The position numbers were made by a program, and so were the translations under genes. 29,736 bases of DNA from Candidatus Hydrogenedentota bacterium (GTDB lineage: Bacteria; Hydrogenedentota; Hydrogenedentia; Hydrogenedentales; JACPGD01). The stretch spans positions 1 to 29,736 of the forward strand of contig JACPGD010000517.1 in assembly GCA_016182645.1 (NCBI GenBank), given 5' to 3'. The number at the start of each line of letters is the position of its first letter. Position 1 is the first letter of the stretch. Below, one piece after another: positions 824 to 24,650 of the stretch. Under the pieces are notes generated by a model, which did not search any database, had not been told where the DNA came from, and saw nothing but the letters and a program-made list of their open reading frames with translations.

Positions 824-838
824 CACCCCCCGCATTCC

Positions 839-1000
839 CACCTTCCCCCGTTCTCATTCACACCTTCTCCCCGTTCCCACGTTCTCACCTTCCCACGTTC
901 TCACAATCCGCAATCCGCAATCCGCAATCCGCAATCCGCAATTCCCGGCCCCTTCTCATTCCTCCCATACTTCCCATTCTTCCCATCACTCCATCTTCCC
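839..1000. repeat. composite pyrimidine-rich short tandem repeat block: 16-bp unit x2 (875-904), heptamer CAATCCG x5 + CAATTCC (904-945), CTTCCCAT-like units (946-1000)
   Basis: Direct reading of the sequence. It lies outside the upstream CDS and fills the space where the 5' part of the sigma-factor gene would be. Confidence 0.9.
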
Positions 1001-1017
1001 CTCAAAAGAACTCCTTG

Positions 1018-1173
1018 CGGCACCTGTGCCTCATAGACCTCAACACCTCCGCCGAGATCGCCCGCCAACTCGGCCTCAAAGAGTCCCGCGTCCGCATGCG
1101 CCTCCAGCGCGGCCTCAAACTCCTCCAAAAATGCCTTGCCCGCCAAGGCATCGACAGCCTCACGCTGCGCTGA
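1018..1173 (+). pseudogene. 3' remnant of an ECF/sigma-70 family sigma factor gene (region 4 HTH only, ~52 codons)
   Basis: Frame-1 translation LCLIDLNTSAEIARQLGLKESRVRMRLQRGLKLLQKCLARQG* matches the sigma-70 region 4_2 pattern (L..EIA..LG....V..RL.RG...L). The upstream in-frame sequence is the repeat block and then overlaps another gene, so no region 2 is present. Stop TGA at 1171-1173. Confidence 0.55.
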
Positions 1174-1731
1174 GCCGGTATCACCCGAGGGCGACTTGGC
1201 ATTAGTCGCGCTGACTACCCTCCAACAGCTATTATGCATGAATTTGGGCTTGAACAGGCTTGATCTGAACGATTGCATGAATGGAGACGGAGAGATGCCA
1301 GTATTCACCTGACTCCTCATTTGGAAATAGATTGCTGTTCCTTTGTAATCCTAGGATGAAATCGTTAGGTTAAAACAGGGACAGACTACGAAATAACTTG
1401 ACTTGCTCCCCTGGTCAAGTGCGCCCGCCCATTGCGCCGGGGGAGTGTGCCAAACGTCAAGCCCGGGAAGTGGAGACGGGAAGGGCCGACTCGAAGTCCG
1501 AAACTCTCTTTCCCCATTCCCACCCCATGTGCTACTCTCCAAGGACAATCCCCCGCCCGGCGTTGTCGAGAACTGGGCGGAGTGGCTACGCATGGAAGAC
1601 GATCCCAATATGCTTGACCGCATCCGCCGTCAGACAAACACTGGGCGGCCCTGTGGCACAGGATCAATTGGAGAATCGGCTGGGCCGCTTCTTGCGGCCT
1701 GCGAAACGGGGCCGCAAGCCGAGAACGAGTC

Positions 1732-2322
1732 ATGAGACCGATGGGAAAGAAGGTAATTCGGAGTCTGTCCCGGATTTGCCCCTTGCTTGTGGGTTTCTCA
1801 CTGGCAGTAGGCGTCTTCTTCGCAGGTCACCATTTTTCGAGGGTTGGGTTGCCGAGGGTGGCATCAGAGATTCGCTTCGCTGATGGAACTGTCGCGCTTC
1901 TGACAACCACATTTAGCGGCACGCTCGAGCCTTTTATCGTATCTTTCTACGTGCAAGAGCCTGGAATGGCTTGGGTTTGGTACTACATTGACCATCAGGC
2001 CTTTTTAGGTTTCGCAAAGGCGTCTTTAGAGTCTACCGGGGACATCATTAGCATATCTGTTGACGGTGTTTCGCGGGCAAGATACGATGTCAGGAAGAGG
2101 GAACTTTACCGTGATGGAAAGCTTCGCAAACCTCTCATCTTGACCGATGGTTCTCCCTTTGAGCCGTATTCCCAACAAATGGTTGCACGCTCTGTGGAAA
2201 GTCGGGAGAATGACGCAGAGGCATCTGCTTTCTGCTTACTTCCGCGCAAGTACGGGCCCTCCCAAGAAGTCCAGGATCAAAATGGGAAACTAGGGACGCT
2301 ACCCATATTTCGGGGAAACTAG
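1732..2322 (+). CDS. hypothetical membrane-anchored protein (196 aa, N-terminal hydrophobic segment)
   Basis: ATG at 1732. The N-terminus ICPLLVGFSLAVGVFFAG is hydrophobic. Third-position GC is visibly lower than in surrounding genes. The stop TAG (2320-2322) lies inside a 30-bp tandem duplication. The ATG overlaps the stop of an upstream small ORF as ATGA. Confidence 0.55.
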   Translation: MRPMGKKVIRSLSRICPLLVGFSLAVGVFFAGHHFSRVGLPRVASEIRFADGTVALLTTTFSGTLEPFIVSFYVQEPGMAWVWYYIDHQAFLGFAKASLESTGDIISISVDGVSRARYDVRKRELYRDGKLRKPLILTDGSPFEPYSQQMVARSVESRENDAEASAFCLLPRKYGPSQEVQDQNGKLGTLPIFRGN

Positions 2323-2353
2323 GGGGAAACTAGGGACGCTACCCATATTTCGG
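2284..2353. repeat. tandem duplication of 30 bp (GGGAAACTAGGGACGCTACCCATATTTCGG) separated by an 11-bp partial unit
   Basis: Copy 1 is at 2284-2313 and copy 2 at 2325-2353. The unit GGAAACTAGG occurs 3 times. The duplication contains the stop codon and last 9 codons of the 1732-2322 CDS. Confidence 0.9.
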
Positions 2354-2417
2354 AAAGATGAAGCCCCAAATTGAACTCTGCTGTGGCCCGGTCCCCTTGA
2401 CCGTGCCACTCCCCCGA

Positions 2418-2610
2418 CCGTCAGGTCTCCTCCTCTTCTTGCCGCCGCCCCTTCCCCCTCTGCCATGGGCGCAGGGTGAGCGGAGAAGGCCGCCATGGTC
2501 ACCGGGCCGGTCCCACCAACCACCGCGTTGGTATCGAACTGCAGGGTGAGCAAAGAAGGCTGCCATGGTCACCGGAACGTGGCCCCAACCACCGCGTTGG
2601 TTTCGAACTC
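2418..2610. repeat. 18-nt motif CCGTCAGGTCTCCTCCTC (2418-2435) followed by a 70-bp unit repeated in tandem twice (2471-2540, 2541-2610; ~88% identity)
   Basis: Direct comparison of the two units (GCAGGGTGAGC..GCCATGGTCACCGG..CCAACCACCGCGTTGGT.TCGAACT). The 18-mer recurs exactly on the opposite strand at 7599-7616. Confidence 0.85.
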
Positions 2611-2750
2611 GGAGCCGGCGATCCGATCTCAAAAAACGCTAGAATTATTGGATATTTCCTGAATTATCTCTATTGTCCACTGAGTACCCCTTGTTTCGCA
2701 AAACCACTCCCCGCCCCGCTCCCGCCCTTTTCACACCTTCCGCATTCTCT

Positions 2751-2778
2751 TGGAGTCTGGAGTCTGGAGTCTGGAGTC
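2751..2778. repeat. heptanucleotide tandem repeat TGGAGTC x4
   Basis: Direct reading of the sequence. It is intergenic, 45 nt downstream of the 3' end of the minus-strand operon. Confidence 0.9.
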
Positions 2779-2823
2779 CGATGAGAACTTGCCATGGCCA
2801 GCACATTCCTTTCCTGTTGTTTC

Positions 2824-4266
2824 CTACTGCTTCATTCCTAATTGCTCCGGTTTGATGGGTGGGGAATAGCTGGGCATGCTGGCGTTGGGGGCGAGGACGT
2901 AGACGCGCGCATCGCCCAGCAGCGCGATGCAGGTGCGGCCCTTCCCCGCTAGGTCTTCGGTGAAGAGCACCTCCCGGAGCGGGGCATCGAACCGGAACTT
3001 GGCCGTGGGGGTATCGTCGAAGCCCTGCTCGCCATAGAGCCACACGGCGTATTCCTCCGCGGTGCGGCTACAGCCAAAATCGGTCCGCGTGTCCCCGTTG
3101 AAGTCGGCGAATACCAGGTGTTTCAAGGGGGCTTCGGAAGGCATCTCGAGGTACCACGACAAGGGCGCCTGGAGTGAAAGCGTGCTCGCGGCGCGCGGGT
3201 CGAAGCGCTCCTTTTCCGGCACGTACAAGTGCACGCGCAACAGGAGCGGCCAGGCGCCGCTGACCGCCGCGCGCGTCAAGGCGTTCACGGTGATGCTGGC
3301 TTCCGCCGGCGACCAGAGCAAGAGATCCGCATAACTGTCTCCATTGAAATCCGGCTGCCGCAATTGCCGCGTCACCAGCATGCCCGGGTACCGCCGGGCC
3401 GGGCCGGCGCGGAATTCCTGGGCGCCGGCATCACCCGTGGCCTGGGGCGCGCGAATCCGCACGAGCAGATCGCTGAACGCCGCATCGGCCGCGGCGTAGA
3501 GGGCACGTTCCTGGAGCAGGGCTTCTTCGCGCAAGGGAAACCAGGGCCAGGCCTCCGGCGGCATGGCGGCGGCCTCCACCATTTGGCGCGGCGTACCCAT
3601 GCGTCGTGCCACGCCTTCCGCCTCGAGCGGCTGGAGTTCCCCGGGCAACTCCGGCGCATTGGCCACCACGCTGTTGACCCGCATCTCCAACGATCCCGGT
3701 GGTCCGATCTGCGGCGGGTTCGAGGCCCGGCTGCTGAATGGTTCGCCATAGCGCGGCTGCTTCACGGCCGTGGCGGCGAGGGGGAAGTTATCGAGCAAAT
3801 CCCCGGCAGCGCTGCGCAGTTCGAGGGCCGTGTCCGTGGGCAGCGCCAGCGCGGGAACGTCCACGCGCGGCACCACCAGCACATGCAGAAACGGCTGGGT
3901 GGCCGCATTGGCGAACTGCGTGTGCAGGGAAAAAAGATCCGTGCCGTCCGGCGAGGAAGGGGTCGGCAGTCCATAGCGCACCAGGGCATCGCCCGCCACG
4001 CTGACGATCTCGCTGCGCCCGTCCCCGTTCAGATCCGCTATGTCCACCGCCGTCGTACCCGGGCGCAGATTCACCTCATAGGAGGAGTCGGGCCTGGAAT
4101 CCTGAAAGACTGTCAGGCGGAGTCCATCCAAGACGAACAATTCCGCGGGCCCCGCCGGTTCCACCTTCGCGGTGAAAAAGCGGGCTTCCGCACTGGGTAG
4201 GGGAAACTCCAACCGATCAAAGGCGTCCGCGGACAGCAACGCCAGGATGAGTGGCAGCAGCGTCAT
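2824..4266 (-). CDS. secreted FG-GAP/VCBS-like calcium-binding repeat protein (480 aa), fourth gene of the operon
   Basis: Internal ATG at 4266 gives a signal peptide MTLLPLILALLSADA. The longer ORF-track N-terminus is Arg-rich overlap junk. There are three D-x-N-G-D-x-x-x-D-[LIV] motifs (ADLNGDGRSEIVSV, PDFNGDSYADLLLW, ADFNGDTRTDFG). The start overlaps the upstream stop as ATGA (4263-4266). Confidence 0.75.
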   Translation of the reverse strand: MTLLPLILALLSADAFDRLEFPLPSAEARFFTAKVEPAGPAELFVLDGLRLTVFQDSRPDSSYEVNLRPGTTAVDIADLNGDGRSEIVSVAGDALVRYGLPTPSSPDGTDLFSLHTQFANAATQPFLHVLVVPRVDVPALALPTDTALELRSAAGDLLDNFPLAATAVKQPRYGEPFSSRASNPPQIGPPGSLEMRVNSVVANAPELPGELQPLEAEGVARRMGTPRQMVEAAAMPPEAWPWFPLREEALLQERALYAAADAAFSDLLVRIRAPQATGDAGAQEFRAGPARRYPGMLVTRQLRQPDFNGDSYADLLLWSPAEASITVNALTRAAVSGAWPLLLRVHLYVPEKERFDPRAASTLSLQAPLSWYLEMPSEAPLKHLVFADFNGDTRTDFGCSRTAEEYAVWLYGEQGFDDTPTAKFRFDAPLREVLFTEDLAGKGRTCIALLGDARVYVLAPNASMPSYSPPIKPEQLGMKQ

Positions 4267-5741
4267 GACGCCTCCTCCCGCGAGAAGTAGACCAGCGAAC
4301 CGGGCGTCTGTGCCTGCTGGGCCTGTTTGGGCTGGACCAGGAGATCGCCGCGGCCATCGTGGTTGATGTCGTACACCCGGATGTCCGCCGGCCCCGGCAC
4401 GCTCCAGGTCGTTTCGAGGGCGCCGCCCAGACGGCCTGGCGCACTCAGAAACAGCCGCACGCGTTCCGGCTCCTCTCGGACCACGACGTCTTTCCAGCCA
4501 TCGCCATTGAAGTCGCCGGTGAAATTGATCAATTCGCCCAGTTGATAGCGTTGAAACATAGGCCCGTTGAGATAGGGCGCCGCATCCAGATTGATGCGCA
4601 CCTGGCCTTCCACGGCGGGCGCCTTGGAGAACCCCCCGCTCTCTTGAGCATAAACACGCAGGACATGATCGAGCACGGAGCGGGTGAGTAGTTGCGCGAT
4701 CATCTCGCGCGGCCCGCCCTGGAACAGCGTGGCTGATTCCGAGACCAAGTCCTTGTCGCCGTCCCCGTCCACGTCCAGGAAGGAACAATGCGGGCGTAAG
4801 CGCTGGAAGGAAGGTTCGCGCACCACTTTGAACGTGGCGCCGCCATCGAGCGTGGCCCATGTTTCGTAGACCGGGAGCGGATACGCGGAGGCTTTGGATT
4901 CCTGCCACACGCCGCCGGCATAGTCGATCACATCGTCATTGTTCAAACGGCAGGGACGCAGGAAGGCTGGCATGGACGGCGTCGCCTGGGTCGAGCTCGC
5001 CGCGGGGTCCAGTTCCCAGGCCTGGCCGGCCGCCACGCTGTAGTCCGTTCGGACGTAGCCCCGGCTGGAGGCCGTTTCCAGGTCCTGGCTGAGGACGCTG
5101 ATCCGATTCGCTTGAAGGAAGAACCTGGCGGACATCTCCCGGGCCGGAAAGAGGAGACGGCGTCTGGGTGCCGGCCAGAGTTGCTGTTGTTCCTCTTGCA
5201 CCAAATCCAGCGGGGGCAGAATGCGCCAGACGGCACGTTCCGCATAAACTTCGCTCTCCTGGTTACGAGAGAAAACATGAATGCCCGCGGGATCGACGGC
5301 GATCAGTTCGGGGTCGCCGTTGCCATCGACGTCGTGGAGATACCGCTGCAAGCGCCGCTTTTCTTCCGAGAGGTCCGGCGGTTGAGCCGGCCAGGACAGG
5401 GGTTGGCCCACGACCGTTTCCCAGCCTCCCTGCGTCCATCGATAGATAGCCAGACTATTCTGGCTTCTCAGGTAGAGCGCACCCCTCCAGACATCAATGT
5501 CGGCGGGAGCGTCCGGTTGCGGCAGTGGCACGCGCCGTTCCGGGGGGAATCCGCCCGCCTCCTGGAACAGAACCATGCCGGCGAGCACCAGATCGTCGGC
5601 GCCATCTCGGTCGAGGTCGGCCTGGACAAAATTCGTGGCGGCTTCCGCGGTGAGGGGATCGACCACGCCGACGTAAACGGCGGGGATTTCCTGGGACGTG
5701 AAGCGCAGGGCGGCCAGACAAAGCAGGGGCAAGCACATCAT
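4263..5741 (-). CDS. secreted FG-GAP repeat (integrin-alpha-like beta-propeller) protein, 492 aa, third gene of the operon
   Basis: Start MMCLPLLCLAAL... (ATG at 5741) overlaps the permease stop as ATGA. Five spaced Ca-binding-type repeats are present (DLDRDGADDLVLAG, DVDGNGDPELIAVD, DVDGDGDKDLVSE, DFNGDGWKDVVV, DINHDGRGDLLV). Confidence 0.75.
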   Translation of the reverse strand: MMCLPLLCLAALRFTSQEIPAVYVGVVDPLTAEAATNFVQADLDRDGADDLVLAGMVLFQEAGGFPPERRVPLPQPDAPADIDVWRGALYLRSQNSLAIYRWTQGGWETVVGQPLSWPAQPPDLSEEKRRLQRYLHDVDGNGDPELIAVDPAGIHVFSRNQESEVYAERAVWRILPPLDLVQEEQQQLWPAPRRRLLFPAREMSARFFLQANRISVLSQDLETASSRGYVRTDYSVAAGQAWELDPAASSTQATPSMPAFLRPCRLNNDDVIDYAGGVWQESKASAYPLPVYETWATLDGGATFKVVREPSFQRLRPHCSFLDVDGDGDKDLVSESATLFQGGPREMIAQLLTRSVLDHVLRVYAQESGGFSKAPAVEGQVRINLDAAPYLNGPMFQRYQLGELINFTGDFNGDGWKDVVVREEPERVRLFLSAPGRLGGALETTWSVPGPADIRVYDINHDGRGDLLVQPKQAQQAQTPGSLVYFSREEAS

Positions 5742-6529
5742 GCGGAGAGGTTTCGGCGCTGAAGCGCAACAATGGCCAAGGCGGTACAGACGGCCATGAC
5801 GGCAAAGGAGGTGCCGAGGACATACCACACGCCGGGGAACCAATCCAGGGCAATGGCCTCACTGCGGCTGCTGAATACGGCCCAGGGCTTCTCGAGGTAC
5901 GTGGAAAAGACGAAGCGCTCGATGCCCAGGGGATATTTGACCAGGTCAATCAGAATCCATCCTCCGACCGCGCCGGAAGCCGCCGTCATGGGGCTCCTGA
6001 AGAAGGAGGAGAACATGAGCGCCAGCGCGACGCCCGCCCATTGCGGGGCCAGGCTCAACAGCAGTCCCAGGAGGTAGGCATTGCTCATCTCTTCCCGCGT
6101 GAAGAGCAATTCGCCGCCATAGGTAACGCCCATGAGTTCGCCGAGGAGCCACGCCAGCAGCCAACTACTCGCGCCAACTATCAAGGTCAACAGCAGGGCA
6201 TAGGTCATGCCATTGAGTAGTTTGGCCAGGACAAACTCGTGCCTGCGCACGGGCCGGATCAGGACTTGCCGGATCGTGCCGGACGCAAGTTCGGTGGACA
6301 CCAACCCCGCCGAATAAATCAGCAGCAGCAAGAACCCGAGGAAATTCAGGGCCACCGGCGTAATATAAGCGATGAAGCCGTAGTCGCTGACCTCGTCTTT
6401 GCTGATGGGGTAGAGGAGCGGGGCGCAGACGACCGCGATCAGGACAAGGACCGGCCCCATGGCCGAGTATTTGTAGTGGATCACCTTGTACATCTCGAAG
6501 AGATAGGCTTGAACAATGCGCCTGGTCAT
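5738..6529 (-). CDS. ABC-2 family transporter permease (263 aa, ~6 TM helices)
   Basis: Start MTRRIVQAYLFEMYKV at 6529 overlaps the ATPase stop as ATGA. It shows the multi-TM hydrophobic profile typical of ABC-2 (NosY/GldF-like) permeases. Confidence 0.8.
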   Translation of the reverse strand: MTRRIVQAYLFEMYKVIHYKYSAMGPVLVLIAVVCAPLLYPISKDEVSDYGFIAYITPVALNFLGFLLLLIYSAGLVSTELASGTIRQVLIRPVRRHEFVLAKLLNGMTYALLLTLIVGASSWLLAWLLGELMGVTYGGELLFTREEMSNAYLLGLLLSLAPQWAGVALALMFSSFFRSPMTAASGAVGGWILIDLVKYPLGIERFVFSTYLEKPWAVFSSRSEAIALDWFPGVWYVLGTSFAVMAVCTALAIVALQRRNLSA

Positions 6530-7446
6530 GAGGCCGCCCCTTTTTCGCTCTGGTTCATGACTTTCAGAAAATAGTCTTGAAGCGTTCGCCGGCGCGGCAT
6601 GATGGCCGAGACCTTGTATCCCCCCGTGACCAGGAATGCGGCCAGTTGGTGTACGTTTTCCTCGCGAAGGCGCACTTGAAGGCGCCCAGGTTTCGCCTCC
6701 ACCTTTTCCACCCAACTCTGCTCCGACAGGCGCTTGGCCGCGCCCTCACTGCCGTCGATCAGGACTTCGACCGAGGTCTGATCATAAGAGAGCAGCGCGT
6801 CCGTCCGTTCGCAGGCCACCAACTCGCCTTTATTCAGGATGGCCACGCGATCGCAGAGACTTTCTACTTCGTGCATCTGGTGGCTTGAGAAGACAATGGT
6901 CACCCGGGCGTCCTTGGCCAGGTACCGGAGCAATTGCAGGATGTCCTGGACCCCTTCCAAGTCCAGTCCGGCGGTCGGTTCGTCGAGCAAGAGCAACTCA
7001 GGCTCGGTCAACATGGCGTGGGCCAGTCCCAGGCGCTGGCGCATCCCTTGAGATAGTGCCCCCGCGCGGGCATTGCCCGCATGCAGCAGTCCCACCAAGT
7101 CCAGCAAGCGGTCCACATTGACATCATGCCCGGCCAGCCGCGCAAACAGCTTCAAGTTGCGGCGCACGCTCAAATAATCGTAAAAGACGGGCCGCTCCAC
7201 CAGCACGCCCATCCGGCGCGCAATAGACACGAAATTCCGCTGCAATTCCCGCCCGAATACGTTGATCTTTCCCTCGTCCGGCCGGACCAGCCCCGCCAGC
7301 ATGTAGAGCGTGGTGCTCTTTCCCGCGCCATTCGGCCCGAGCAGACCCAACACCTCGCCTTCCTCCACTTTCAGCGTCAAGTTCTTGACCGCAACCGTGG
7401 AACCATAGTGTTTCGTCAGGTTGTTTAGGGAAATACAGGTGGGCAT
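6526..7446 (-). CDS. ABC transporter ATP-binding protein (306 aa) with C-terminal extension
   Basis: Walker A GPNGAGKST, ABC signature LSQGMRQRL and Walker B LLLLDEP are all present. ATG at 7446 (MPTCISLNNLTKHYG). The longer ORF-track N-terminus only translates the heptamer repeats. Confidence 0.9.
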   Translation of the reverse strand: MPTCISLNNLTKHYGSTVAVKNLTLKVEEGEVLGLLGPNGAGKSTTLYMLAGLVRPDEGKINVFGRELQRNFVSIARRMGVLVERPVFYDYLSVRRNLKLFARLAGHDVNVDRLLDLVGLLHAGNARAGALSQGMRQRLGLAHAMLTEPELLLLDEPTAGLDLEGVQDILQLLRYLAKDARVTIVFSSHQMHEVESLCDRVAILNKGELVACERTDALLSYDQTSVEVLIDGSEGAAKRLSEQSWVEKVEAKPGRLQVRLREENVHQLAAFLVTGGYKVSAIMPRRRTLQDYFLKVMNQSEKGAAS

Positions 7447-7471
7447 GCGAAAATGGTAGCACGACGGGAGG

Positions 7472-7534
7472 GGGATTGGGAATTGGGAATTAGGAATTAG
7501 GAATGGGGAATGGGGAATGGGGAATGGGGAATGG
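7472..7534. repeat. heptanucleotide repeat array, 9 units (minus-strand sense: CCATTCC x5, TAATTCC x2, CAATTCC, CAATCCC)
   Basis: Direct reading of the sequence. It lies 26-90 nt upstream of the ABC ATPase start codon. The unit is related to the CAATCCG/CAATTCC array at 904-945. Confidence 0.9.
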
Positions 7535-7545
7535 GGGAGGAGGGA

Positions 7546-7616
7546 GGAGACCTGCGGTCGGGGCCGTGGCGCGGTCAGGAGACCACGCCATAGCGGGGGA
7601 GGAGGAGACCTGACGG
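7546..7616 (-). repeat. two direct copies of the motif CCG(T)CAGGTCTCCTCC.C..CCCCC plus a third GGAGACC core; degenerate copy of the 2418-2610 element
   Basis: The reverse complement of 7599-7616 equals 2418-2435 exactly (18/18). Downstream similarity continues (CCCCCGCTATGGCG vs CCCCCTCTGCCATGGGCG). A second copy is at 7546-7566. Confidence 0.7.
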
Positions 7617-7811: not shown

Positions 7812-10800
7812 ATGCAGCGCTTAGGGGTTTTCGCTTGGGCGGCGGGTGTAACGGGCGCCGTCATTGCCACCGTGGTGGTGGCCGCCGCGGTGTTCCAGCA
7901 AGAGGCGCTGCCGGCGCCGGATCGGCTGGACGGGGCTGGGGCACCATCGGAGACAGCGGTCCCAACGCCCGGGACGAAACCACTGCCGGCTGCGCTCCAG
8001 CGTAAGCTGAAGAAAGGCCCAAAACCCCACGATCAGCCGGCCGAAGCGCAGGAATTCTATGTGCAGCAACGTATGGGCGGCGCGGGGCCGCTGGACTATG
8101 CCTTGCTCGAGGCGGCCGCCGCGGAGGCGGAGAAACTGCCGTCGGCCAATGTATTCGCCGAGAAGGCCGCCGGGGACATTAGCGGTTGGGAGGAACTGGG
8201 TCCCGGCAACATTGGGGGACGTACGCGAAGCCTGCTGCTTGACCCCTTGAATCCGGACATTATGTACGCCGGCGGTGTGGCGGGCGGCGTCTGGAAATCC
8301 ACGGATGGCGGCGGCAACTGGGACCCGCTCAATGATTTGATGGACAACCTCGCCGTGACGACGCTGGCGTTTGAGCAGCAAGGGTCGCCCACCACCAATA
8401 CCGACGTGATATACGCGGGTACGGGCGAGGGCTATTTCAACGGCGATGCGGTGCAAGGCGCGGGGATCTTCAAGAGCAGCAACTCTGGCGCTACCTGGAC
8501 GAGGCTGGCCAGCACCAATAATGCAGACTTCTTTTTTGTGAACAAACTGGTGGCCAGCCCCAATAATCCGCAGGTACTGTACGCGGCGACGGCCACGGGC
8601 ATCTGGCGTACCAACAATGGGGGCCAAACCTGGACACCGGTCCTCCGCAATAATGGGGCGGGCGGAACGAGCGGCTCCGCGGTAAGGACTTTCGTTGGCT
8701 TCACCGACATCGAGATTCGTACCGACCTGACCACGGACACGTTGTTCGCAAGCAATGGAAGTTTCATCGCTCCGCCCAACTTCCCGGCGGACGGCATCTA
8801 TCGCTCTTTGGATGGCGGGGACTCCTGGTCTCGTGTTTTCACCCGGGCGGACATGGGCCGATCCGATCTGGCCATAGCACCGAGCAATCAAAATGTCATT
8901 TATGCCTTGACGGCGGACGCTCAAAATGGTGAGCGGTTGCTGAACGTGTTTCGGAGCATGGATGGCGGCACGACGTGGGCGCCGCGGATTTCAGGCACCT
9001 TTAACCGGCATAACGCGGACTGGCTGTTGCTCACGAATCCGCTCATTGCCAATCTGGGCCCGTGCTTCGGCGATTTCGACGGGGAATTCAACCAGGGCTG
9101 GTATGACAACATTATCGCCGTTGCGCCCCACAATCCCGACATCGTGTTTGCGGGCGGTATCGACCTGTTTCGGTCCGACAATGGCGGCGCCAACTGGGGC
9201 ATCATCAGCTACTGGTATGAGCCGATTGCCGGGACCGCCTTCGCGCACGCGGACCATCACGCACTCGTATTTCATCCGGCGTGGAATGGCGCCTCGAATC
9301 AGGTCCTTTTTAATGGCAGTGACGGTGGTGTCTATCGAACGAATAATGCGCTGGCCGCCGTGGCGTCCGGCGCCAATGATGGGGTGTGCAGCGATTCGAC
9401 AGAGGTGGTGTGGAACAGCTTGAACAACAGTTATGGCGTGACGCAGTTCTACCACGGACGGCCTTACCCAGCGCCCACGGAACGGTACTTTGGGGGTACG
9501 CAGGACAACGGCACGCTGCGCGGCGCGGACAATACGGGATTGAATGGCTGGAACGAAATCAACGGCGGTGACGGCGGCTATGTCAGCTTCCACCCGGGCA
9601 ACCCGAACATCCTCTTCGCCGAGAACACCGGCGCCAGTATGCAGCGTTCGGTGAATGGCGGCTCAACTTTTGATGATATTGTGTCGGGGGCGGGGCAAAT
9701 CAATTTTGATATCGACCCTGGCTTCATGTTCATCACTCCATTCCGCCATGACCCGAGCAATCCCGACCGGATCTGGTATGGCGGCTGGTTTGCCTGGCGC
9801 TCGAACAATGCCGCGAGCGCCTCCTCGGCAACCGCCGTGCGCTGGACCCAGGCCAGTGCAGTGACCCCCGGCGATGGGAGCATCTCGGCCTGGGGCATCG
9901 ATCCCAACAACAGTAACAAGGTCTACGTGGGTCTTTCAGACGGTGTTGTTGCGCGGACCACCAATGCCACAACATCCACCAGCGCCACCAACTGGGCGGA
10001 CATTACGCCACCCTTCACCGGGTTCGCCTACATCAGTTGGATCGAGGTGGATGGCAACGACACGACCGGCGGAACGGTGTATGTGACCAACTCGGTGTTC
10101 GGCTCCCAGCACGTTCTTAAGTCAAGCAACGGGGGCAATGCCTGGACGGACATCACCGGGAACCTGCCGGACATTCCCGTCCACTGCCTTGTCGTGCAAC
10201 CGGGGGCGGCAAGCAATTTGTTCATCGGGACCGACCTTGGCGTTTTTGTGTCGAAGATTGGCGGGGGGAATTGGACCCGCATGAACTCAAATGGTTTTGC
10301 GAACGTCGTGGTCGAGTCGCTCGAATTTCAGGACGCCGAAACCCTCTATGCCTTTACGCATGGGCGCGGGGCTTTCCGGGCGGCGGTACAGCCACCGGCC
10401 GGCGGCGAGGGTGAAGGGGAAGGCGAAGGCGAAGGCGAGGGAGAAGGCGAAGGTGAGGGGGAAGGGGAAGGCGAAGGGGAAACGGTGATCGTCGATGTGC
10501 TGACTGATGTGGCCGATGGCGACACGTCGTCGGTCCAGGCACTGGGTCTGAATCGCGGTCCCGATGGTAAGATCTCGCTGCGCGAAGCCCTCCTGGCCAC
10601 GAACAACACCGGTGGCCCGAATGTCATCACCTTCTCTGTCAATGGCGCTATCCGGCCGTCGACGCCCTTGCCGTTCCTCAGCGACCAGAGCGGCGGCACC
10701 CAAATTCAGGGGGGCAATACGATTACGCTTAATGGGATCTTGGCGCCCGCGGCCACGGACGGTCTCGTGCTGAGTTCGGGCGCTAACGCCGTCATTGGCT

Positions 10801-12434
10801 TGAGCATTATCGATTTCACGGGCAATGGCATCAGTATCCTGGGCGATCAGAACATTGTCCAGGGGTGTTTCATTGGCATCCGCCTGGATGGCTCGACCCT
10901 GCAAGGCAACGATCTGAATGGGATAGCCCTCTCGGGCGGCAGTGGCAACCTGATCGGCGGCAGTTCCACTCAGCAGCGCAACGTGATATCTGGCAATGGG
11001 CTAGGGATCCTGATCAATGTTGGCGCACAAGGCAATATCATTCAGTCGAACTTTGTGGGCACGACGGCCAGCGGGACGGCCTCGGCGGGCAACCTCTCGC
11101 ACGGTATACTGCTGGAGGAGGCGGGAACGTCCGACAATATAATCGGCGGAGTGGGCGTCGGGAACGTGGTGTCGGCCAATGGCGGTGAAGGCATTATCGT
11201 GAACGATGCCGGCACGGGCAACCAAATCCAGGGCAATTTCTGCGGAACCAACGTTACGGGCGCCGCGGGCCTGGGCAACACGGAGTCCGGCATACTCGTG
11301 GACAATACGACCGGATGCCTGATTGGTGGGGCCGTGGCGGGACAGGGCAACCTGGTGGGGGGCAATGGCTCCGACGGCATCGCCCTGGGAGGCGACGCTT
11401 GTGAGGGCAATGTAATCTCAGGCAACCGCGTGGGCGTCAATCTGGCAGGGACCGTGGCGATCCCGAATGCCAATGAGGGGATTGTGTTGTTCGGGGGGGC
11501 GCACAACAATACCATCGGCGGTTCCACCGCGGGCGCGGGCAACCTGGTTTCGGGAAATATCTTCAATGGCATCCTGCTGGCCAGCCGGACCACCGCCAAC
11601 CTGGTGCAGGGGAACATCGTGGGCTTGGGCGCGGACGGCACAACGCCTCTTGGCAATTTTGAAGACGGTATTGGCCTGGCCAATGGGGCGAGCAATAACC
11701 TGATCGGCGGCGAAGGCACGGGCGCGGCCAACGTGTCCAGCGCGAACAGGGGCGCCGGCGTGCACGTGAATGGATCGAACACATTGAACAACACCATCAG
11801 CCGCAACAGCATCTATAACAATGCCGGCCTGGGAATCCGGCTGAGCGAGGGCGGCAACGGCAACATGGGCGCGCCGGTCATTTCCGGGCTGGGCTCGGTG
11901 GATGGGACCGCGCCTCCCGATAGCACCGTCGAGATTTTCGTGGACGGCAGCGACGAGGGACGCATCTACCTGGACACGGTCACCGCCCAGAACGATGGTA
12001 CGTTCTCGAGCGACGAGCCGGTGGGCGCCTATGTCGGCATGTTCGTGACCGCCACGGCGCGCAATGCGGCAGGCAGCACCTCGATATTCAGCGTGCCGCT
12101 GTTGATTTCGGGAGTGGGCGAGGGTGAAGGCGAGGGCGAGGGCCGCGGCGACCACAGTGCCGACCTGAACAAGAATGGCCGCATTGAATTGTCCGAGTTG
12201 CTGCGCCTGGTGCAATTCTACAATTCAGGGATCTTTCATTGTCAGGGCGGTACGGAGGACGGCTACAATCCGGGTCCCGGCCCACAGAATTGCACCACGC
12301 ATGACAGCGATTACGCCGATCAAGACTGGCGCATCAACCTCTTCGAATTGCTCCGGCTTGTCCAGTTCTACAACAGCAACGCCTACTTCGAATGCACCGG
12401 TACGGAGGATGGCTACTGCCCCGGGCTGGGGTGA
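7812..12434 (+). CDS. giant modular cell-surface protein (1540 aa): N-terminal anchor, BNR/Asp-box (sortilin/GH74-like) beta-propeller, (GE)n linker, CSLREA motif + right-handed parallel beta-helix, second GE linker, duplicated dockerin-like Cys-containing C-terminal module
   Basis: - N-terminal hydrophobic anchor.
- At least 8 S/T-x-D/N-G-G-x-x-W BNR motifs (KSTDGGGNW, KSSNSGATW, RTNNGGQTW, RSLDGGDSW, RSMDGGTTW, RSDNGGANW, KSSNGGNAW).
- GEGEGE x12 at aa ~865-890.
- ISLREALLATNN then repeated N.I.GN....GI.L beta-helix rungs.
- Two C-terminal repeats (DLNKNGRIELSELLRLVQFYNS...C..GTEDGY.PG). Confidence 0.85.
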   Translation: MQRLGVFAWAAGVTGAVIATVVVAAAVFQQEALPAPDRLDGAGAPSETAVPTPGTKPLPAALQRKLKKGPKPHDQPAEAQEFYVQQRMGGAGPLDYALLEAAAAEAEKLPSANVFAEKAAGDISGWEELGPGNIGGRTRSLLLDPLNPDIMYAGGVAGGVWKSTDGGGNWDPLNDLMDNLAVTTLAFEQQGSPTTNTDVIYAGTGEGYFNGDAVQGAGIFKSSNSGATWTRLASTNNADFFFVNKLVASPNNPQVLYAATATGIWRTNNGGQTWTPVLRNNGAGGTSGSAVRTFVGFTDIEIRTDLTTDTLFASNGSFIAPPNFPADGIYRSLDGGDSWSRVFTRADMGRSDLAIAPSNQNVIYALTADAQNGERLLNVFRSMDGGTTWAPRISGTFNRHNADWLLLTNPLIANLGPCFGDFDGEFNQGWYDNIIAVAPHNPDIVFAGGIDLFRSDNGGANWGIISYWYEPIAGTAFAHADHHALVFHPAWNGASNQVLFNGSDGGVYRTNNALAAVASGANDGVCSDSTEVVWNSLNNSYGVTQFYHGRPYPAPTERYFGGTQDNGTLRGADNTGLNGWNEINGGDGGYVSFHPGNPNILFAENTGASMQRSVNGGSTFDDIVSGAGQINFDIDPGFMFITPFRHDPSNPDRIWYGGWFAWRSNNAASASSATAVRWTQASAVTPGDGSISAWGIDPNNSNKVYVGLSDGVVARTTNATTSTSATNWADITPPFTGFAYISWIEVDGNDTTGGTVYVTNSVFGSQHVLKSSNGGNAWTDITGNLPDIPVHCLVVQPGAASNLFIGTDLGVFVSKIGGGNWTRMNSNGFANVVVESLEFQDAETLYAFTHGRGAFRAAVQPPAGGEGEGEGEGEGEGEGEGEGEGEGEGETVIVDVLTDVADGDTSSVQALGLNRGPDGKISLREALLATNNTGGPNVITFSVNGAIRPSTPLPFLSDQSGGTQIQGGNTITLNGILAPAATDGLVLSSGANAVIGLSIIDFTGNGISILGDQNIVQGCFIGIRLDGSTLQGNDLNGIALSGGSGNLIGGSSTQQRNVISGNGLGILINVGAQGNIIQSNFVGTTASGTASAGNLSHGILLEEAGTSDNIIGGVGVGNVVSANGGEGIIVNDAGTGNQIQGNFCGTNVTGAAGLGNTESGILVDNTTGCLIGGAVAGQGNLVGGNGSDGIALGGDACEGNVISGNRVGVNLAGTVAIPNANEGIVLFGGAHNNTIGGSTAGAGNLVSGNIFNGILLASRTTANLVQGNIVGLGADGTTPLGNFEDGIGLANGASNNLIGGEGTGAANVSSANRGAGVHVNGSNTLNNTISRNSIYNNAGLGIRLSEGGNGNMGAPVISGLGSVDGTAPPDSTVEIFVDGSDEGRIYLDTVTAQNDGTFSSDEPVGAYVGMFVTATARNAAGSTSIFSVPLLISGVGEGEGEGEGRGDHSADLNKNGRIELSELLRLVQFYNSGIFHCQGGTEDGYNPGPGPQNCTTHDSDYADQDWRINLFELLRLVQFYNSNAYFECTGTEDGYCPGLG
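10404..10484 (+). repeat. in-frame imperfect hexanucleotide repeat (GGN GAR)x~13 encoding the Gly-Glu linker; shorter second tract at 12113-12142
   Basis: Direct reading of the sequence. The unit length of 6 keeps the frame if copy number changes. Confidence 0.85.
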
Positions 12435-23381: not shown

Positions 23382-24650
23382 TCAGACCTTGGCCCATTCG
23401 GCGCCGGCCGAGGCGCCCGAAGAATACAGCCGGCCTTCGATACCTGTGGCTAACTGATAGTCCTCCATCAGCCGTATTGAAAACTGCTTGATATGTTCGG
23501 TTTGCACCAGGTGCACCGCGCACCCGCCGAAGCCGGCGCCGGTCATGCGGCTGCCGTAACAGCCCGGCAACAAGCGGGCAATAGCCGTCATCGCGTCCAA
23601 CTCGGGACTGGTCACCTCGTAGTCTTCGCGCAGGCTGTGGTCGGAGGCATTCATCAGGGCGCCGAAGCCGGGCGCGTCGCCGTCGCGCAGCCGGGCGCAC
23701 GCTTCGAGCGTACGGCCGTTTTCGGAAATCACATGCCGCGCACGCCGAAACGCGACGGTGTCGAGTCGGTCGCGCGCCTCTTCCAACGCGGCCAGCGAAA
23801 AGTCGCGCAGGTGCGTACCCTTGTTGTGATCAGTCTCCCCATTGTGGCCGGTCTCCCTGTTGTGGCCGGTCTCCTGACCGCGCCACGGCGCCGACTGTGG
23901 GTCTCCTCCTCCACCGCGCTTTCCCAGCATCTCGCACAGCCCCGCCACGGCGCGTTCGCACTCCGCCACGCGCTCGTTGTATTTCGATCCGGACAGCCGC
24001 CGCGCGCAGCACGTGTCCGTGATGACCAACGCTGCGTCCGCGAAATTGATGGCCACATGCTCCAGCGCCAGCGACCGGCAATCGAGGAACAGCGCGTGCC
24101 CGGCCCGGCAGCAGCGGGAGGCAAATTGGTCCATGATGCCGCTGCTGATACCGAGGAACTCGTTTTCCACGCGCTGGCCCAAGCGGGCCGCTTCCCCGTC
24201 ATCGAGTGTGAATCCGTATAATCCCTCAAAAAGCTTGAGCACGGCCATTTCCACCGCCGCCGAACTGCTCAGCCCCGCGCCCACGGGCACATCGCCGGTG
24301 ATATACAGATCGGCGCCCTGCGGCAGCCTGTACCCGCCCTGGGTCAATTGCTGGGCGACGCCCGCAATATAGTCCATCCACGGATGTGCCGCCTCGCGCG
24401 TCAAGCCATCCAGGGGAAGATCGGCGCCGTCATTGAACTGCTCCGCGAAAGCGCGCACGCGGTTGTCCGTCCGCGCCTGTCCCGCAATCATTACTTCCAG
24501 ATCCAGTGCCATTGGCAAGACAAAGCCGTGGTTGTAATCGGTATGCTCGCCAATCAGGTTAACGCGTCCCGGCGCCCGTGCCACGATGCTGGCGGGGCCC
24601 CCAAACCGCCGGGCAAACCCGGCCCGGACTGTTTCGAGAGCGATACTCAT
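23382..24650 (-). CDS. galK: galactokinase
   Basis: N-terminal signature PGRVNLIGEHTDYNHGFVLP, the GHMP kinase ATP motif (PVGAGLSSSAA) and the C-terminal GAGFGGC motif. 422 aa including a ~25-aa low-complexity insertion. Confidence 0.92.
   Translation of the reverse strand: MSIALETVRAGFARRFGGPASIVARAPGRVNLIGEHTDYNHGFVLPMALDLEVMIAGQARTDNRVRAFAEQFNDGADLPLDGLTREAAHPWMDYIAGVAQQLTQGGYRLPQGADLYITGDVPVGAGLSSSAAVEMAVLKLFEGLYGFTLDDGEAARLGQRVENEFLGISSGIMDQFASRCCRAGHALFLDCRSLALEHVAINFADAALVITDTCCARRLSGSKYNERVAECERAVAGLCEMLGKRGGGGDPQSAPWRGQETGHNRETGHNGETDHNKGTHLRDFSLAALEEARDRLDTVAFRRARHVISENGRTLEACARLRDGDAPGFGALMNASDHSLREDYEVTSPELDAMTAIARLLPGCYGSRMTGAGFGGCAVHLVQTEHIKQFSIRLMEDYQLATGIEGRLYSSGASAGAEWAKV
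23820..23886 (-). repeat. in-frame 18-bp tandem repeat x3 inside galK encoding ETGHNR-ETGHNG-ETDHNK
   Basis: Plus-strand units GTCTCCCCATTGTGGCCG / GTCTCCCTGTTGTGGCCG / GTCTCC... The insertion follows a Gly-rich stretch (GKRGGGGDPQSAPWRGQ) not expected in canonical GalK. Confidence 0.7.

Follow-up and report, generated by a model that had tools for sequence, protein, structure and literature searches.

Three heptanucleotide repeat arrays in a Hydrogenedentota contig are probable slippage-generated members of a known repeat class

Tandem heptanucleotide repeats are known from several bacterial phyla, and three further arrays are described here from a contig of a Candidatus Hydrogenedentota bacterium (JACPGD010000517.1, assembly GCA_016182645.1), analyzed over its full length of 29,736 nt (∼61% G+C) and referred to below as the window. 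Heptanucleotides were the most abundant long simple sequence repeats (SSRs) in most genomes studied by Mrazek et al. (2007), as that work is cited in PMC4679880 and PMC4692102, which also relay its proposal that the polymerase holds ∼7 nt of DNA, which would favor slippage of that unit. The closest described repeats are the G-rich heptamers of Xanthomonas (GGGAATC and heterogeneous (GGGANTN)n) and Nostoc (GGGGA(C/T)T), which number 89–186 per genome, are mostly intergenic and often arranged as convergent inverted pairs, vary in length between close relatives, and formed G-quadruplexes (G4s) in vitro; no function was identified for them, and phase variation was considered unlikely in that study (Rehm et al., 2015; PMC4692102). 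Other tandem heptamers, namely the TAACTGA direct repeats of marine Beggiatoaceae, Cyanobacteria, and Bacteroidetes (PMC4679880) and the short tandemly repeated repetitive (STRR) sequences of Calothrix (cited in PMC4692102), are patchily distributed across phyla and often near start codons, again with no known function. At hmw1A/hmw2A of Haemophilus influenzae, by comparison, an (ATCTTTC)n repeat is transcribed in the 5′ untranslated region (5′UTR) and forms a long hairpin cleaved by RNase III (PMC12721329). Heptamers are the commonest long SSR class in bacteria, yet neither their function nor the mechanism of their origin has been established. The three arrays of the window are probably slippage-generated, lineage-specific heptanucleotide SSRs of the NGGANTN class rather than conserved regulatory sites.

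All three arrays were recovered by Tandem Repeats Finder (TRF) and by a regular-expression census, both run on the whole window, and TRF together with a reading of the minus strand confirmed the coordinates and units given in a preliminary description of the same DNA. Array 1 (904–942 in TRF; period 7, 5.6 copies, 100% matches) has the plus-strand unit CAATCCG and ends in a variant sixth unit, CAATTCC, at 939–945, such that (CAATCCG)x5 + CAATTCC spans 904–945; on the minus strand, it reads GGAATTG followed by (CGGATTG)x5, which fits NGGANTN and contains no tracts of three Gs (G3). Array 2 (2751–2778, plus strand) is a perfect (TGGAGTC)x4 array (4.0 copies, 100% matches), fits NGGANTN on the plus strand, and is not G4-capable. 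Array 3 lies on the plus strand (7470–7536; period 7, 9.6 copies, 91% matches, TRF unit GGGGAAT); its plus-strand units run GGGGATT, GGGAATT x2, AGGAATT, AGGAATG, and GGGAATG x4 (+GGGG), and the same tract at 7472–7534 reads on the minus strand as CCATTCC x5, TAATTCC x2, CAATTCC, and CAATCCC. Arrays 3 and 2 lie at the two ends of a four-gene operon on the minus strand (2824–7446). Array 3 is 26 nt upstream of the ATG of its first gene, an ABC ATPase, within a 365-nt divergent intergenic region, and the gap noted previously was found to be correct (the A of the ATG is at 7446); the G-rich strand of the array is the non-coding strand relative to this gene. Array 2 lies 46 nt past the stop codon (2824) of the last operon gene, and array 1 lies 81 nt after the stop of an unassigned gene (end at 823) and 76 nt before a 50-aa fragment.

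No other perfect period-7 array of three or more copies occurs in the window, and perfect arrays of other periods from 4 to 12 amounted to one GCCGG x3 and one coding hexamer, no more. The pattern (RSGRATK)x4 matched arrays 1 and 3 only (9 matches observed vs. 0.00 expected in 100 shuffles), and two or more consecutive NGGANTN units were found, on both strands of the whole window, solely in the three arrays. Control DNA from unrelated bacterial metagenome loci contained 1 heptamer site in 562 kb, and none was found in 105 kb from Hydrogenedentes relatives; three sites in 29.7 kb therefore constitute a real local excess, and the arrays are real and not expected by chance. As in the long-SSR class, their units are perfect or near-perfect, lie head to tail, and extend beyond the length expected by chance. 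The lone control site, on an unrelated metagenome contig (L138, 2093–2190), consists of (TAGACAT)x6 followed directly by (TAGACTT)x8.

On the G-richer strand, RSGRATK describes each of the fifteen units in arrays 1 and 3, and NGGANTN covers all three arrays (CGGATTG, TGGAGTC, and GGGAATG/AGGAATT) with the common core GGANT, such that array 2 can be added to the pairing of arrays 1 and 3 made in the preliminary description. A random heptamer contains GGANT, in any rotation or on either strand, with a probability of 0.05, and the fit of arrays 1 and 2 to this core has p ∼0.003 once array 3 had indicated the published consensus. Kinship of the three arrays through GGANT is therefore likely but not proven; units of different arrays are unlike at 3–4 of 7 positions. 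The CAATYCC unit previously said to be shared by arrays 1 and 3 describes their edge units only and not their main units (CAATCCG and CCATTCC), whereas the mutual inversion of these two arrays was borne out; they sit in the two 150-nt stretches of the contig with the strongest purine/pyrimidine skew. The sites had all been called intergenic; for the first, the neighbors of array 1 are a gene and a truncated sigma-factor fragment rather than two intact genes.

Against the long-SSR class of Mrazek et al. (5–11 nt), as far as it is outlined in PMC4679880 and PMC4692102, the arrays agree in their heptanucleotide units, high genomic G+C, location outside coding sequence, and proposed slippage origin, and nothing in those outlines contradicts membership, although this is a sequence class and not a functional system. 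The repeats of Rehm et al. are a closer match: the period is 7, the GGGAATG/GGGAATT units of array 3 are one base from GGGAATC and its first unit, GGGGATT, is the Nostoc unit itself, the three arrays are intergenic and not conserved in length or presence between relatives, and array 3, with at least four G-tracts (G4-capable at the sequence level), is 26 nt from a gene on the non-coding strand. They depart from that class in that arrays 1 (CGGATTG) and 2 (TGGAGTC) fit only the relaxed NGGANTN, with GG rather than GGG, and occupy the less common strand and position (array 2 is 46 nt downstream of a gene but on the non-coding strand, and array 1 is 81 nt away); in addition, array 3 lies between divergent genes, a placement rare in the Rehm study, no convergent inverted pair exists among the three arrays, and the phylum is Hydrogenedentota. 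The TAACTGA and Calothrix STRR repeats are alike in being intergenic tandem heptamers but differ in unit sequence. Like array 3, the hmw1A/hmw2A repeat is a tandem heptamer located upstream of a gene, and its copy number can tune expression (PMC12721329); array 3, by contrast, precedes the −10 element, the mRNA of the operon is probably leaderless, and the repeat is not predicted to form a hairpin.

To place the arrays in a wider setting, (RGGAATK)x4 was searched with one genome per species, yielding at least 119 stretches; the loci were selected by this pattern, and open reading frames (ORFs) were called crudely by a greedy longest-ORF procedure. The matches listed, to which the following counts apply, came from Cyanobacteria (the largest share), Bacteroidota, Clostridia, Negativicutes, Acidobacteriota, Chloroflexota, Armatimonadota, Verrucomicrobiota, Planctomycetota, Patescibacteria, and others, with no Hydrogenedentes genome among them. 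In 80 of the at least 119 loci, perfect arrays of period 7 numbered 127, vs. 16 for all other periods from 4 to 12. TRF returned 230 period-7 arrays, 103 of them seed-type, with a median of 5.7 and a maximum of 29 copies per seed-type array. Most arrays (114/132, 86%) lay outside crude ORFs, vs. 24% of random positions; 85/113 abutted the gene on the 5′ side of their G-rich strand, which is the polarity of array 3, often within a few bases of a stop codon, and 36 of these were upstream of a start on the non-coding strand at a median of 48 nt. Inverted partners within 300 nt were convergent in 12 cases and divergent in none. The census thus reproduced the published positional rule, with crude gene calls, over a much wider taxonomic sample; array 3 obeys this rule, and arrays 1 and 2 fall in minority classes. 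Units resembling array 2 (GGGAGTC, AGGAGTT, and GGAGTGA) also occur in the same census loci.

Orthologs of the operon downstream of array 3 were retrieved from eleven other lineages (64–79% ATPase identity), and the four-gene order was kept wherever the contig was long enough. Directly upstream of the ATPase gene, an extended −10 element, TGcTACCAT (7453–7461, minus strand; 6 nt upstream of the ATG), was recognized by comparison: TGnTAnnnT occurs 6–7 nt before the ATG in the window (cgTGcTACCATtttcgcATG) and at 11/11 orthologous loci (including L001, L002, L004, L192–L194, L196–L198, and L200). This conservation suggests an extended −10 promoter of the operon in Hydrogenedentota, giving a putatively leaderless mRNA because the position of the −10 box puts the transcription start at or next to the start codon. 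A generic sigma-70 scan did not call this box, and sigma-70 and terminator scans near the arrays gave nothing useful. Apart from the −10 box, no upstream sequence was conserved across the eleven lineages, and a heptamer array upstream of the operon was found in 0/11. With its near end 10 nt upstream of the TG of the −10 box, array 3 occupies the position of the −35/UP region, which an extended −10 promoter does not strictly need; lying upstream of the promoter core, it is not within a −35/−10 spacer or a 5′UTR. In one relative (L193, GCA_024449895.1), the long divergent spacer contains a perfect (ACGAGC)x17 array at 9785–9886, ∼115 nt upstream of the ATPase gene, and (CCACACCGT)x3 at 9535–9561. 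Close relatives of the window itself were scarce: each operon protein formed a singleton cluster at 90% identity among ∼15 billion sequences, the closest ATPase relative was 79% identical, a metagenome scan with the ATPase returned two short relatives (68 and 59% identity) and unrelated ABC genes, and an exact-protein look-up found no strain variants on record.

Neighboring units of array 3 differ by 1, 0, 1, 1, 1, 0, 0, and 0 bases, a one-step mutational series such as point mutations and subsequent local duplications leave behind; arrays 1 and 2, each perfect internally, are unlike each other at several positions. These stepwise units and unlike arrays, together with dissimilar flanks and the absence of a hairpin, favor slippage in place over a mobile element or a single binding protein. 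The three arrays would accordingly have grown in situ within the non-coding DNA of this Hydrogenedentes lineage, through replication slippage. Array 3 is predicted from its sequence to be a G-quadruplex/i-motif-forming tract; an effect on expression, if there is any, would come from DNA structure or from upstream DNA shifted in 7-bp steps, and would not be expected through a change in −35/−10 spacing or in the 5′UTR. Among the roles proposed in the preliminary description, a lineage-specific SSR family is the best supported, the arrays having been found neither at the 11 orthologous loci nor in the 105 kb of DNA from relatives; the word lineage-specific does not extend to the unit type, which is known in Xanthomonas and Nostoc (PMC4692102) and was seen in many phyla. 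The arrays belong to a known repeat class newly seen in Hydrogenedentota, by which the GGGANTN-type repeats are extended to this candidate phylum, and, judging from the census, the family and its polarity toward gene ends extend far outside Xanthomonas and Nostoc. In practical terms, length variation and assembly errors are probably concentrated at such arrays. Nothing so far shows that they regulate genes or act as a genetic switch.

Several points weigh against this reading. Slippage and length polymorphism in the population, like any effect on expression, are inferred from the arrays themselves rather than observed, and abundance and positional bias were viewed from one contig of the genome. 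Arrays 1 and 2, with GG only, lie outside the positions and strands preferred by the published class; in a post hoc treatment, moreover, the common GGANT core is only marginally significant, as some 4-of-5 core recurs among three random units in 6.6% of trials (0.066). The unrelated long SSR at the orthologous operon of L193 could also hint at selection for variability instead of neutrality, although that (ACGAGC)x17 array may reflect merely available non-coding space. Two other candidate explanations were discarded. A hairpin, terminator, or cruciform is not indicated, as folding of the array 2 region is poorer than that of its shuffles (z = +3.0) and the array 1 and 3 regions are not significant, and GANTC methylation cannot be common to the arrays, there being one site per unit in array 2 and none in arrays 1 and 3.

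Regulation through DNA structure is an unlikely alternative, in which a G-quadruplex and i-motif of array 3, forming when the divergent promoters unwind the region, would modulate transcription of one or both flanking genes or shield each gene from the other. In array 3, the perfect half (7505–7544, plus strand) forms a canonical G4 motif (G4-AAT-G4-AAT-G4-AAT-G4...) whose loops are 3 nt long and whose G4Hunter score is the highest in the contig (2.56), making the array a strong G4 candidate close to a promoter. In both position and strand, it agrees with the preference of the published G4-forming heptamers, and very similar oligonucleotides (GGGAATC and GGGGATT repeats) formed G4s in vitro (PMC4692102). 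A single further canonical G4 site exists in the contig (GGGCGGGAGCGGGGCGGGG; 2709–2727, minus strand), at the opposite end of the operon, 24 nt beyond array 2 and on the operon coding strand. Set against this, the contig as a whole is not enriched in G4 motifs (3 observed vs. 5.7 ± 2.3 in composition-matched shuffles), and arrays 1 (G4Hunter −0.6) and 2 have GG instead of GGG and thus no G3 tracts for a three-tetrad G4. Predicted G4 capacity is consequently a property of array 3 alone within the window and not of the family, which this explanation leaves unaccounted for. The array is also missing from all 11 orthologous promoters, and the authors who described the class found no regulatory role for it (PMC4692102). 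A G4-based effect confined to array 3 is plausible but unproven.

It is similarly doubtful that array 3 is a contingency locus, in which slippage would heritably and reversibly change expression of the ABC-2/FG-GAP operon or of the divergent gene for a 1540-aa protein. Heptamer SSRs can drive phase variation (PMC12721329), array 3 is only 26 nt from a start codon in a divergent promoter region, and its perfect distal half is slippage-prone. Contingency loci are associated with surface, host-interaction, or restriction-modification genes; the genes concerned here encode an ABC-2 exporter and two FG-GAP/VCBS proteins, the latter possibly exported, and L193 has its unrelated 17-copy hexamer upstream of the same operon. 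The preliminary description had suggested that copy number would alter promoter spacing, and the promoter comparison does not support this: gain or loss of units inside an array that starts 10 nt upstream of the TG of the −10 box leaves the promoter-proximal unit in place, so a spacing mechanism does not fit. In SSR contingency loci, the repeat lies within an ORF, a −35/−10 spacer, or a 5′UTR, where changes in unit number switch expression, and copy number varies among cells or strains in step with expression. Array 3 is instead upstream of the conserved −10 box and outside the spacer, and a probably leaderless mRNA places it outside any 5′UTR; the hmw1A repeat of Haemophilus, the model for such a locus, is part of a structured 5′UTR and likewise does not fit (PMC12721329). 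The repeat forms no hairpin, arrays 1 and 2 adjoin no start codon, and phase variation was judged unlikely for the Xanthomonas and Nostoc repeats (PMC4692102).

A broader and more speculative proposal, to which only a small chance is given, is that NGGANTN arrays make up one cross-phylum family with a built-in polarity that reflects, beyond neutral slippage, a directional process or function tied to transcription or gene ends; the arrays bracketing the operon would then be working members of the family, and array 3 a length-variable, supercoiling-sensitive element of a leaderless promoter. Such a process might involve, for example, tracts of G4 or Shine-Dalgarno-like type that act on the ends of transcripts or on the DNA trailing RNA polymerase.

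Membership of the arrays in a mobile or dispersed element, resembling a miniature inverted-repeat transposable element (MITE) or a repetitive extragenic palindromic (REP) sequence and copied to three places, is very improbable. The candidate for such an element is a dispersed GGAGACC-containing repeat, distinct from the heptamer arrays, of which one copy (7537–7616, plus strand) abuts array 3 and two more occur in the contig (2405–2440 and 23830–23925), with the core GCCGTGGCGCGGTCAGGAGACC and flanking motifs GGAGGAGACC. Two 18-nt pieces of this repeat (2418–2435 and 7599–7616) are perfectly inverted and bracket the ABC/FG-GAP operon, and arrays 1 and 3 are themselves mutually inverted. The flanks of the three arrays, in contrast, have no significant similarity, only an 8-mer being common to them; the copy at 23830–23925 lacks a heptamer array, no GGAGACC repeat is near array 1, and the units are unlike between arrays. 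The copy at 23830–23925 lies within galK (23382–24650, minus strand; Pfam GalKase_gal_bdg and GHMP kinase domains), where this GGTCTCC/GGAGACC repeat, including an 18-nt tandem repeat at 23833–23874, encodes an in-frame insertion of ∼35 aa (GKRGGGGDPQSAPWRGQETGHNRETGHNGETDHNKGT).

The ribbon-helix-helix omega repressor of plasmid pSM19035 binds 7-bp heptads; systems of this type have one conserved heptad sequence at all sites and a cognate regulator gene. Protein-binding iterons were among the roles proposed previously. With the omega repressor as the model, such a role would suit the contiguous direct 7-bp units next to a promoter and the GGANT common to all three, but it is the least probable explanation, given that the units vary between arrays (unlike at 3–4 of 7 positions), that identity is perfect within and not between arrays, which is a signature of slippage and not of selection for one specificity, that none of the arrays is conserved in relatives, and that Pfam scans, which covered selected larger ORFs, showed chromosomal housekeeping genes and neither a plasmid or partition function nor a regulator of the omega type.

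The operon comprises, in order of transcription on the minus strand, the ABC ATPase (6526–7446; 100% identical to MBI2435610.1), an ABC-2 permease (5738–6529), and two FG-GAP/VCBS proteins (4263–5741 and 2824–4266), with gene ends that agree exactly with the NCBI protein records MBI2435610.1, MBI2435608.1, and MBI2435607.1. On the other side of array 3, the divergent gene (7812–12434) encodes the 1540-aa protein, which has Sortilin-Vps10 and beta-helix matches; it contains in-frame hexamer/dodecamer arrays (GGCGAA/GAAGGGGAAGGC) at 10404–10481 and 12116–12143, which would encode Gly/Glu-rich linkers. Other genes of the contig are ordinary chromosomal ones (aminotransferase, response regulator, galactokinase, endonuclease III, and DNA polymerase X), and Rfam and tRNA scans of the window gave no match.

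Arrays 1 and 2 are embedded in a gene-poor stretch (824–2823) that has a lower G+C content (55–58%) and is rich in other repeats. Array 1 belongs to a compound low-complexity tract (826–1000, plus strand; 77% pyrimidine on this strand) that also includes a degenerate 16-nt repeat (835–904) and a 9-nt repeat (952–986). The 50-aa frame that follows (1021–1173, plus strand) matches only region 4 of extracytoplasmic function (ECF)-type sigma-70 factors, without an upstream region 2, and is a truncated sigma-factor pseudogene. A transposase-tail remnant was suspected at ∼1590–1735 and dropped, as no NCBIfam match was found. Farther along toward array 2, two copies of a 30-nt direct repeat (GGGAAACTAGGGACGCTACCCATATTTCGG) enclose a partial copy in the 2281–2354 region, and a 70-nt tandem duplication (GCAGGGTGAGC...CCAACCACCGCGTTGGTNTCGAACT) occupies the 2471–2610 region.

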